Sequence record: MZ234025.1
Direction: 5' to 3' (one strand)
Origin: Escherichia phage vB_EcoM-172859UKE1
Length of the DNA stretch: 64,000 nucleotides
In this document: one piece after another, positions 43,755-45,121 of the stretch
Position numbering within the stretch: the first letter of the stretch is position 1
Layout of the letters: each line of letters begins with the position of its first letter
Notes under the pieces: model-generated
What the model was told of the DNA's origin: nothing
Database searches by the model: none
What the model saw: only the letters and a program-made list of their open reading frames with translations
Program-made: the position numbers and the translations under genes

Positions 43755-43829
43755 GGCCCTGTAGCTCAATGGGAGAGCTGTCAGCTCATAACTGATAGGT
43801 AGCTGGATCGAAACCAGCCAGGGTCACCA
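43755..43829 (+). tRNA. tRNA-Met (anticodon CAT; could be initiator, elongator or lysidine-modified Ile2)
   Basis: Hand-folded cloverleaf: 7-bp acceptor stem, D arm GCTC/GAGC, anticodon loop CTCATAA, T arm GCTGG/CCAGC, encoded CCA; T-loop ATCGAAA is atypical. Confidence 0.75.
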
Positions 43830-43832
43830 ATC

Positions 43833-43909
<77 letters not shown>

Positions 43910-43927: not shown

Positions 43928-44272
43928 ATGAAAGGCAATATTTATCTGGTAGTTCATGACTTAACGTTTTATTTTAACGAACGTGAAACAGTTATTTCCG
44001 ACCGGTTGATTAATTCGTTATATCAACACGCTGATTACGTTTATTTCCAAAATGAATTTGGCCATTGGAAGTTTCTTAAAAACCGTTCAGGGTTAACTAG
44101 TTTTGAATACTTTGACCGTAAAGACCTTTTAAACGAAATTCCATTACAACATCGGTTCCAGAAACGCGAATCACTATACTATTGTCGTCATATACCAAAT
44201 GCTGAATGTGTTAATGAAGCGATTAATCTATGGCGGCGGCGTCGAGAGCAAATTGATGATATGCCAAAATAA
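43928..44272 (+). CDS. Hypothetical protein (114 aa)
   Basis: ATG 43928 after GAGG SD, just downstream of the tRNAs; the ORF-track start at 43880 would overlap tRNA-Arg. Confidence 0.55.
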   Translation: MKGNIYLVVHDLTFYFNERETVISDRLINSLYQHADYVYFQNEFGHWKFLKNRSGLTSFEYFDRKDLLNEIPLQHRFQKRESLYYCRHIPNAECVNEAINLWRRRREQIDDMPK

Positions 44273-44273
44273 G

Positions 44274-44583
44274 AAGCCGGGTCGCTACCGGCAAGTCGTC
44301 GGACTGATGTTCCCTGAGTAAGGACTGGTCTTAATAAATCTTTACGATTTGTTAATATCCCCTTACATCACAGCAGAAACGGCGCACCGAATTATCGATT
44401 CGAGGAAATATCTTTGCCGTAAGCCGAGTAGCGTTTTTGACGGAACGTTCGGATATGGTCGAGATATGGCCTTTTAAAAATATTGAGTAGCGTCAACTGC
44501 TTAATAACCGGGTTCGAATCCCGGCGTTTCGTACAAACACTTGCCTTAGCAGGTGGAACCCCGACAAGGTTGCCGCAAGGCTT
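44274..44583 (+). ncRNA. Candidate stable noncoding RNA region next to the tRNA genes
   Basis: About 310 nt without a credible ORF, GC-richer than surroundings, tRNA-like T-arm CCGGG-TTCGAAT-CCCGG at 44508-44524, ends at a strong terminator; analogous to T4 stable RNAs by position. Confidence 0.3.
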
Positions 44584-44612
44584 AGCCCCTTCCGAAAGGT
44601 CGGGGCTTTTTG
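44584..44612 (+). terminator. Rho-independent terminator
   Basis: AGCCCC...GGGGCT hairpin followed by TTTTT; near-identical copy at 60733. Confidence 0.7.
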
Positions 44613-44656
44613 GCATAATAATAAATAGATAAGTTAATTAACTTAGGAAAAGCAAC

Positions 44657-45121
44657 ATGAAATCATACGCTGAATTTTTGACTGAACAATCTAGTTCAGA
44701 TGTAAAAGCCGCTGCGATTGCAGCAATTCAAGCAGGTAAATATTCTTACAAAGACGCCTCTGATGAAGAACGTTTCCGTTTTATTAGAGATTTTAAAGCC
44801 GAAGGTTTTACTAATGCTAATACTGTTAGCCGAGTTTTTAAAAGCCTAGCTGCATCAGGTGAATTGTTCCAGAAAGCTACAGGTAAAGCACCTGCGCCAA
44901 AAACAGACCCTAAAGCAGCTCAAGAAAAAAATATCGCCAAAGGAATTATTTCTAAGTATGAAGCAATTCTTAAAGAGCTTTTAGTAATCAAAACAGAAGG
45001 CCAGAAACTGGCACGAGCACATAGCTTCAAAGATAATCCTCACGCTCATAGCCTTGAGTATGTTGAAGATATCCAAAAACTTATTAAAGACCGTATCTGG
45101 TCTGCTAAACAAATTAAATAA
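44657..45121 (+). CDS. Internal-protein-like protein with CTS-like N-terminus (154 aa)
   Basis: N-terminus MKSYAEFLTE resembles the T4 capsid targeting sequence MKTYQEFIAE. Confidence 0.55.
   Translation: MKSYAEFLTEQSSSDVKAAAIAAIQAGKYSYKDASDEERFRFIRDFKAEGFTNANTVSRVFKSLAASGELFQKATGKAPAPKTDPKAAQEKNIAKGIISKYEAILKELLVIKTEGQKLARAHSFKDNPHAHSLEYVEDIQKLIKDRIWSAKQIK

Follow-up and report, generated by a model that had tools for sequence, protein, structure and literature searches.

The segment at positions 44269–44613 of a 64,000-nucleotide (nt) stretch of DNA from Escherichia phage vB_EcoM-172859UKE1 (MZ234025.1; this whole stretch is referred to as the window) is almost certainly the distal end of a transfer RNA (tRNA) operon, in which orthologs of the phage T4 RNAs rnaD and rnaC are followed by a conserved trailer and an intrinsic terminator that ends by 44613. 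The sequences of both were determined in T4 during the 1970s, and the RNAs are already known as objects, being annotated in the T4 reference genome. The original prediction for this region, made from the sequence letters, had proposed candidate stable RNA at 44274–44620, either a counterpart of the two stable RNAs of T4 or a decayed tRNA. The first of these readings is correct, because the segment aligns base for base with T4 rnaD and rnaC, shares their order and terminator, and is highly identical to the T4 sequence. As to its extent, the RNA block does lie where it had been placed, but it begins at 44269, five bases 5′ of the proposed start. The parts of the block are as follows.

44269–44389, + strand: rnaD (species 2 RNA) ortholog, 121 nt, placed by alignment to the annotated features of T4 and RB3
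44390–44395, + strand: AAUUAU spacer between rnaD and rnaC, the same sequence in T4, RB3, and ATK47
44396–44532, + strand: rnaC (species 1 RNA) ortholog, 137 nt, placed by alignment, with ends as in X03016
44533–44613, + strand: conserved trailer of the tRNA operon with terminator, ~80 nt

The ends of rnaC used here are those of the T4 record of Broida and Abelson (X03016); the convention of NC_000866 would give 44395–44533.

Identity of the segment with the T4 RNAs

In the T4 genome (NC_000866) two misc_RNA features, rnaD (“species 2 RNA,” 71053–71171) and rnaC (“species 1 RNA,” 70908–71046), lie immediately after tRNA-Arg. The pair is likewise annotated in RB3, and in Mosigvirus ATK47 an rnaC feature occupies the corresponding place. 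We mapped the T4 features onto the window through a four-way alignment; 44267–44616 aligns to T4 at 92.6% identity. The identity is unevenly distributed: rnaC matches T4 at 135 of 137 positions (98.5%) and RB3 at every one (137/137, 100%), rnaD matches T4 at 105/122 (86%) and ATK47 at 118/121 (97.5%), and the trailer is 92.5% identical to T4, compared with 71–82% for the neighboring coding DNA that can be aligned to T4. A BLAST search of 50,697 phage records with 44274–44625 as the query matched 806 records, 679 of them with a coverage of 80% or more; T4 and phages close to it are among the matches, at 90–96% identity. Over its 137 nt rnaC is 97–100% conserved in >700 phages. The block is under strong purifying selection.

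The resemblance to T4 extends to arrangement. As in T4 (X03016 4741–4877), rnaC is located after rnaD and before the operon terminator, on the same strand as the tRNAs, and has the same predicted fold, with only two substitutions separating the two RNAs. For rnaD (X03016 4615–4734) the 5′ 48 nt and the 3′ 25 nt are nearly identical to those of T4, and the 5′ hairpin, the long-range stem, and the location directly upstream of rnaC are shared; the central hairpin, however, has diverged, and the RNA ends in CACC-G here and CACC-A in T4. The operons themselves differ in that the one in the window has two tRNAs and that of T4 has eight, and in that an open reading frame (ORF) here separates tRNA-Arg from the RNA pair, so that rnaD is preceded by an ORF and not by tRNA-Arg.

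The simple sequence properties from which the segment had been singled out were all borne out. It had been described as free of ORFs, and between ORF 43928–44272 and ORF 44657–45121 there are just mechanical ORFs of 40–74 amino acids (aa). It had also been described as GC-richer than its surroundings, and the G+C content of 44269–44612 is 48%, as against 38.1% for the window and 35–37% for the two flanking ORFs. The T-arm-like sequence CCGGG-TTCGAAT-CCCGG falls exactly at 44508–44512, 44513–44519, and 44520–44524, the acceptor-like strand said to accompany it is 44525–44531, directly 3′ of the T arm and able to pair with 44396–44402, and short palindromes are present (e.g., ATCGAT, TTCGAA, and GAACGTTC). 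A search of Rfam, which had been suggested as a check, found no family for rnaD or rnaC, either at the gathering thresholds or at E ≤ 10, and no match to the tRNA family (RF00005) was obtained in 44269–44613 even at E ≤ 10. ARAGORN called neither a tRNA nor a transfer-messenger RNA (tmRNA) in the segment. The Rfam matches that were recorded there are at chance level (tRNA-Sec, 16.6 bits, 44440–44532; isrK, 16.5 bits, minus strand).

Predicted structure of rnaC and its likeness to tRNA

The elements of the rnaC structure, from 5′ to 3′, are listed below.

44396–44402/44525–44531, + strand: acceptor-like stem of seven positions, with five Watson-Crick pairs and two U-U mismatches
44403–44405/44470–44472, + strand: D-stem analog of 3 base pairs (bp), directly after the acceptor stem
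44406–44407 (AA) and 44468–44469 (GG, elbow), + strand: internal loop from which the long hairpin emerges
44408–44467, + strand: inserted long hairpin of ~60 nt, in the position of the D-loop
44437–44442, + strand: apical loop UUGACG of the inserted hairpin, proposed kissing partner of 44491–44496
44473–44480, + strand: A-rich single-stranded linker of 8 nt, UUUAAAAA
44481–44490/44497–44506, + strand: arm 2, in the anticodon position, 10 bp with a 6-nt loop
44491–44496, + strand: loop CGUCAA of arm 2, proposed kissing partner of 44437–44442
44507, + strand: single base A between arm 2 and the T arm
44508–44512/44520–44524, + strand: T arm with the loop UUCGAAU (44513–44519), stacking on the acceptor 3′ strand
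44532, + strand: discriminator-like base U

The minimum free energy (MFE) fold of rnaC has a z-score of -4.55, and none of 200 shuffled sequences was as stable. A first consensus fold, from an alignment of 15 diverse rnaC sequences, is a four-way junction with compensatory changes in 27 of its 40 pairs. The pairs were then counted, tertiary pairs included, in a model-fitted alignment in which 27 sequences represent nine or more phage genera; a MAFFT alignment gave the same picture. In this set 97.0% of cells are paired, compared with 84.5% in shuffles (0 of 500 reach the observed value) and 36–47% when the partner is slid, and both sides have changed in 28 of 47 pairs. The terminal stem, which joins the 5′ and 3′ ends, is 100% paired, again with compensatory changes, and the U-U mismatches of the acceptor stem are U-A pairs in PM2. 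The A-rich linker was found in all rnaC homologs compared. A covariation comparison across relatives had been set beforehand as a check on the stable-RNA proposal, and conserved secondary structure was found by it in the homologs of both rnaC and rnaD. For rnaC these comparisons show a predicted structure that is a strongly constrained, tRNA-derived four-way junction, in which the acceptor-like stem is coaxial with a T arm of canonical form.

The covariance model built from the 15-sequence alignment (R1) finds exactly one copy of rnaC per phage, at 124–172 bits, the copy in the window scoring 164 bits over its full length. Real tRNA genes, those for tRNA-Gln and tRNA-Ser among them, are also matched by R1, weakly and over the full length (14–29 bits), and the overall architecture of rnaC is therefore tRNA-like.

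Two tertiary contacts are proposed. The loops UUGACG and CGUCAA are exactly complementary, and could form an intramolecular kissing loop of 6 bp. In the 27 sequences 99% of the cells of this kissing loop are paired; a kissing pair is A-U in 20 sequences and G-C in seven, the latter being those of the Marfavirus type, each of which carries matching changes in the two loops (UUGGCG and CGCCAA). The other contact joins the internal loop to the T loop: GG at 44468–44469 accompanies the T-loop sequence UUCGAAU, and CG accompanies UGCAUGC or UGCAUUC in Kanagawavirus and Winklervirus, the elbow pair being G-U in 21 sequences and C-G in six. This covariation matches what a tRNA-like elbow would predict (G18/U55 plus G19-C56), with G18/U55 turned into C-G. 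The possibility that the TTGACG loop is a -35 promoter element was considered and set aside, as no promoter-like site was reported there and the loop covaries with CGUCAA.

The 5′ strand of rnaC, CG(A/G)UUCGAGG (44396–44405), is almost invariant in all 27 sequences, including both U residues of the U-U mismatches. It resembles the T-loop motif GGUUCGA, and its conservation exceeds the needs of base pairing. Pairing of GAUUCGA in this strand with UCGAAUC of the T loop was rejected, since the 5′ strand is unchanged where the T loop becomes UGCAUGC.

The recorded ends of the T4 RNA are also of interest. In X03016 species 1 is 137 nt long, from CGAUUCG... to ...CGUUUCGU; its first C pairs with the last G of the acceptor stem (opposite position 72) and its last base, U, is at the discriminator position, and the recorded ends thus correspond to tRNA positions +1 to 73. 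All the sequences compared have U or A at -1 (U in the window), and the genomic continuation after rnaC is ACA in most phages and CCA in the Marfavirus group and PM2. Based on these ends, the -1 base, and the ACA/CCA continuation, we infer that the 5′ end of rnaC would be made by RNase P and the 3′ end trimmed, with subsequent addition or repair of CCA. The AAUUAU spacer (44390–44395) is presumed to be a processing site. A mature species 1 RNA of 140 nt would fit 137 nt plus CCA.

Compared with canonical tRNA (RF00005), rnaC has a seven-position acceptor stem that abuts a T stem of 5 bp closed by the loop UUCGAAU, a four-way junction, the elbow covariation, and a discriminator-like base with CCA or ACA after it, and like tRNA genes it is located in tRNA clusters. 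It differs in having no 7-nt anticodon loop, as its 6-nt loop instead pairs with 44437–44442, and in having a ~60-nt hairpin in the D-loop, no nucleotides 8–9, and two U-U mismatches in the acceptor stem; unlike a tRNA, it escapes both ARAGORN and the tRNA model. In tmRNA (SsrA) an acceptor/T-arm minihelix is combined with non-tRNA helices that replace the anticodon arm, and the molecule is made by tRNA-processing enzymes. rnaC similarly joins an acceptor/T-arm minihelix to non-tRNA helices, but it has no tag reading frame and no pseudoknot ring, is only 137 nt long, and does not have the G3-U70 alanine identity pair in either the T4 or the moha type (moha being the phage whose sequence the segment shares, see below). 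No tmRNA was found in the window by ARAGORN or Rfam. YrlA, the bacterial Y RNA-like RNA, is a non-coding RNA with a tRNA-like module whose termini form a Ro-binding stem. It resembles rnaC in carrying such a module in a non-coding RNA, although in YrlA the module is internal. In the window the YrlA family (RF02553, gathering score 69) has a single match of 16.6 bits, which covers the two real tRNAs and neither rnaC nor rnaD.

The companion RNA, the trailer, and their distribution

The remaining structured elements of the block belong to rnaD and to the trailer.

44276–44280/44288–44292, + strand: 5′ hairpin of rnaD, loop GUCGCUA
44295–44301/44380–44387, + strand: long-range stem of rnaD
44538–44544/44549–44555, + strand: trailer hairpin H1
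around 44572–44581, + strand: small hairpin with a GCAA loop
44585–44593/44598–44606, + strand: intrinsic terminator, a G+C-rich hairpin followed by T5 (44607–44611); scan match 44590–44605 with a CTTTTT tail

The MFE fold of rnaD has a z-score of -3.27, and again none of 200 shuffles was as stable. Its consensus structure has 23 pairs, of which five show compensatory changes, whereas the long-range stem does not vary at all; the fold is less well supported than that of rnaC. The 5′ 48 nt and 3′ 25 nt of rnaD are almost invariant and the long central hairpin occurs in three sequence versions, the 3′ end reading ...GCGCACC-G here and ...GCGCACCA in T4. We considered whether rnaD might be a second tRNA-like RNA and rejected this, as neither the tRNA model nor R1 matches over rnaD and the bases adjoining its 3′ CA/CG tail on the 5′ side are taken up by the long-range stem. 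We infer that rnaD may be a separate module, modeled as a 5′ hairpin and a long irregular hairpin with no detectable likeness to tRNA.

A strong terminator had been proposed at the end of the segment; the hairpin listed above agrees with this, and X03016 labels the corresponding feature of the T4 trailer “pot. terminator.” In phage AnYang the stem carries a compensatory change, from GCCCC/GGGGC to GGCCC/GGGCC. CCCCGAC (44559–44565) and GUCGGGG (44599–44605) could form a 7-bp helix that would compete with the terminator, and which is weakened in AnYang.

Homologs of rnaC were identified in Tequatrovirus, Mosigvirus, Kanagawavirus, Karamvirus, Gelderlandvirus, Mosugukvirus, Kagamiyamavirus, Winklervirus, and Marfavirus. 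Outside Tequatrovirus and Mosigvirus it is situated between tRNA genes with spacers of 5–8 nt (e.g., Trp/rnaC/Gly). The distribution of rnaD is narrower, comprising Tequatrovirus, Mosigvirus, and Dhakavirus only, and the genera other than these three that have rnaC have it without rnaD. Conversely, in the Dhakavirus phages AnYang (705–901) and IME341 (705–895) rnaD is joined directly to the trailer, rnaC is absent, and there is no R1 match. The sequence at the junction in these phages, ...GCGCACCGAA/CACUUGCC..., gives the impression that rnaC was lost, or was never inserted, as a unit, in the manner of a tRNA gene. In Mosigvirus the tRNA set is down to two and both RNAs are retained. Based on their separate occurrence and their retention in Mosigvirus, rnaD and rnaC are independent modules, neither of which needs a large tRNA set. 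Scans with degenerate patterns found 13 loci in IMG/VR and three in metagenomes, all of them in T4-like phages, and these scans did not extend the rnaC family beyond the enterobacterial T4-like phages (Straboviridae and Marfavirus).

The RNAs are recurrently misannotated in public records. The rnaC homolog is annotated as a 95-nt “tRNA-Met” in PG7 (1246–1340) and SonariX (1554–1648), and ARAGORN run on the homologous stretch of Pet-CM3-4 (1246–1341) gives tRNA-Phe. Marfavirus records have a hypothetical coding sequence (CDS) of 45 aa over rnaC (1216–1353), and in many Tequatrovirus and Mosigvirus records the rnaD–rnaC region is assigned to one or two “hypothetical proteins”; the record of phage moha has no annotation over either. 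The SonariX record (PQ898399, an Enterobacter phage, 248-kb “partial genome,” no taxonomy) has a tRNA cluster with rnaC arranged exactly as in Karamvirus PG7, and may be a chimeric or concatenated assembly.

The 1-kb region that holds the segment shows 100% identity to Escherichia phage moha (MN850590), which belongs to Mosigvirus and is an RB69-like relative of T4. Its neighbors are the following.

43755–43829, + strand: tRNA-Met (CAU), by ARAGORN and the Rfam tRNA family
43833–43909, + strand: tRNA-Arg (UCU), by ARAGORN and the Rfam tRNA family
43928–44272, + strand: ORF of 114 aa, phrog_3355, unknown function, between tRNA-Arg and rnaD
44657–45121, + strand: ORF, phrog_2280, 3′ of the trailer

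The two tRNA genes (59.4 and 71.1 bits, respectively, with the Rfam tRNA family) are the only ones in the whole 64-kb window by both ARAGORN and Rfam, as had been expected from the sequence. Antisense to tRNA-Arg (43833–43907, minus strand) there are sub-threshold Rfam matches to Plastid-ycf2 (30.7 bits) and Plastid-psbl-rps4 (26 bits), which we dismissed as artefacts, as these untranslated-region families evidently include tRNA-derived sequence. The TAA stop of the 114-aa ORF (44270–44272) lies within the first bases of rnaD. T2 has a homolog of this ORF in the same place (T2_136, 67% aa identity), teqskov has an unrelated ORF of 184 aa at the tRNA-Arg/rnaD junction, and in T4 there is none and tRNA-Arg abuts rnaD; different genes seem to have been inserted repeatedly at this junction. 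A motif scan of the whole window found no T4 late-promoter motif TATAAATA close to the tRNA/rnaD/rnaC block. Over the window as a whole there are 19 copies of the motif where 7.7 would be expected, and most of them are on the minus strand at 4–30 kb (e.g., 4307–29153).

Possible role of rnaC and alternative explanations

In T4 a primary transcript of ~1.75 kb carries eight tRNAs and both RNAs and terminates after the species I gene (PMC2330249), and rnaC and rnaD have been observed by RNA-seq and Northern blot as late-accumulating RNAs (PMC9697503). Both are excised from the long operon transcript and persist as stable RNAs. Their roles are stated as unknown (PMC3014915; PMC9697503; PMC12685909), and our literature search found no paper giving a function or a comparative structure for either. 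A convergent single-nucleotide polymorphism in rnaD on adaptation of a T4-like phage to the host ECOR34 (PMC12685909) hints at a host-dependent role for that RNA. The T-even tRNA region is known to counter tRNA-directed defenses by means of its real tRNAs (PMC13096335).

The structure proposed for rnaC would have consequences for what it can do. The kissing contact would sequester the loop on the anticodon side, and rnaC would be unable to decode because that loop would be locked. It may instead work through recognition of its acceptor, T arm, and elbow, and could in this way tie up a host or phage factor for which the upper half of tRNA is the recognition site, such as a tRNA-directed defense or a processing enzyme. 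Of the roles we can envisage for rnaC, the likeliest, which we put forward tentatively, would be to act in trans, as mimic or decoy, on a factor binding the upper tRNA half. We hold with slightly more doubt the wider proposal that rnaC could be a top-half tRNA mimic whose decoding half has given way to two arms locked by the kissing loop, and which acts in trans on a host or phage factor reading the elbow or the acceptor end, as a cofactor or as a decoy against, e.g., a tRNA-directed defense nuclease. T4-like phages of at least nine genera would in this reading have kept it for a long time, with or without rnaD and whatever their number of tRNAs.

Several points weigh against these proposals. 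T4 deletions that lack the tRNA region grow on laboratory strains, and for this reason any function of rnaC or rnaD must be conditional. A decoy function would be conjectural, and a stable RNA of ~140 nt processed from an operon transcript is known for T4 only, from which it would be extended to other phages by analogy. The kissing-loop and elbow covariations each represent only one or two evolutionary events. The alternative helix 44440–44447/44525–44532 is 84% paired across the homologs, making a second conformation possible. rnaC has two U-U mismatches in its acceptor stem, is without nucleotides 8–9, and has ACA rather than CCA encoded after it, features that keep its tRNA-like handling conjectural. 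Lastly, part of the very high identity of rnaC across genera could stem from recent exchange, the tRNA region being a hot spot of conversion driven by homing endonucleases (PMC2330249).

It is also conceivable, though we consider it unlikely, that the RNAs have no role in trans and the block serves the tRNA operon in cis, its 3′ structure directing processing, protecting the upstream tRNAs from 3′ exonucleases, and terminating transcription, with the stable RNAs as by-products. Such an element would be expected where the block is always found, at or within tRNA clusters and co-transcribed with them (PMC2330249), and the retention of the trailer in Dhakavirus though rnaC is missing and the passage of 50 years without a function being found (PMC3014915) are in keeping with it. 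However, a by-product would not need 97–100% conservation over 137 nt in >700 phages, nor would it be expected to persist in phages that retain just two tRNAs; in Karamvirus and its relatives rnaC is mid-cluster and not at the 3′ end, and the conserved kissing loop and elbow contact would be left unexplained.

The annotations of PG7 and SonariX raise the question of whether the 3′ 95 nt of rnaC (~44440–44533) are a real class-II tRNA with a long variable arm, and ARAGORN does call tRNA-Met in these two phages and tRNA-Phe in Pet-CM3-4, while the chance-level tRNA-Sec match covers almost the same bases and the alternative acceptor helix, paired to the extent given above, would close such a molecule. 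We regard this as very improbable, since the anticodon varies between homologs (Met or Phe), ARAGORN makes no call in the window, IME523, F48, or PM2, and the tRNA-Sec match (E = 3.9) is far under the gathering score of 47. Moreover, the alternative helix shows next to no compensatory change, and at one of its positions 18 of the 27 sequences carry a mismatch, in contrast to the fully paired and compensated terminal stem, and the T4 RNA ends in X03016 cover the full 137 nt. A decaying, now neutral tRNA pseudogene (or several) from a larger ancestral cluster has still less to commend it. Mosigvirus has indeed lost most of the cluster (two tRNAs vs. 8–10 in T4 and RB3), and rnaC does have a T arm and an acceptor-like stem, so that the part of the original prediction that saw tRNA-like architecture here holds; its decay does not, given the conservation and the compensatory substitutions that keep the helices in at least nine genera. 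A neutral relic would, further, hardly retain 98.5% identity to T4 beside genes at 71–82%, and T4 rnaC is a stable, abundant transcript (PMC9697503). Equally remote is the idea that the segment encodes small proteins, to which mechanical ORFs of 42, 49, and 74 aa overlapping the region and the CDSs annotated over it in several GenBank records, the 45-aa CDS of Marfavirus among them, might lend some credence. No frame is open throughout the homologs, the 74-aa minus-strand ORF is broken in T4, the Proteus, PM2, and PG7 sequences have stops in all six frames of rnaC, and the substitutions preserve pairs and not codons.

The practical value of these results is in annotation, as neither RNA matches an Rfam family and many public records have spurious entries for them, and the moha record none; the comparative structure, the distribution data, and the documentation of recurrent misannotation are useful additions to two RNAs already known. 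They also provide a testable model for rnaC, with a tRNA-like upper half, a locked lower half, two covarying contacts, and a distribution independent of that of rnaD, which directs the search for a partner to factors that bind the upper half of tRNA. If true, the reading of rnaC as a mimic would supply the function that this RNA has lacked since the 1970s.

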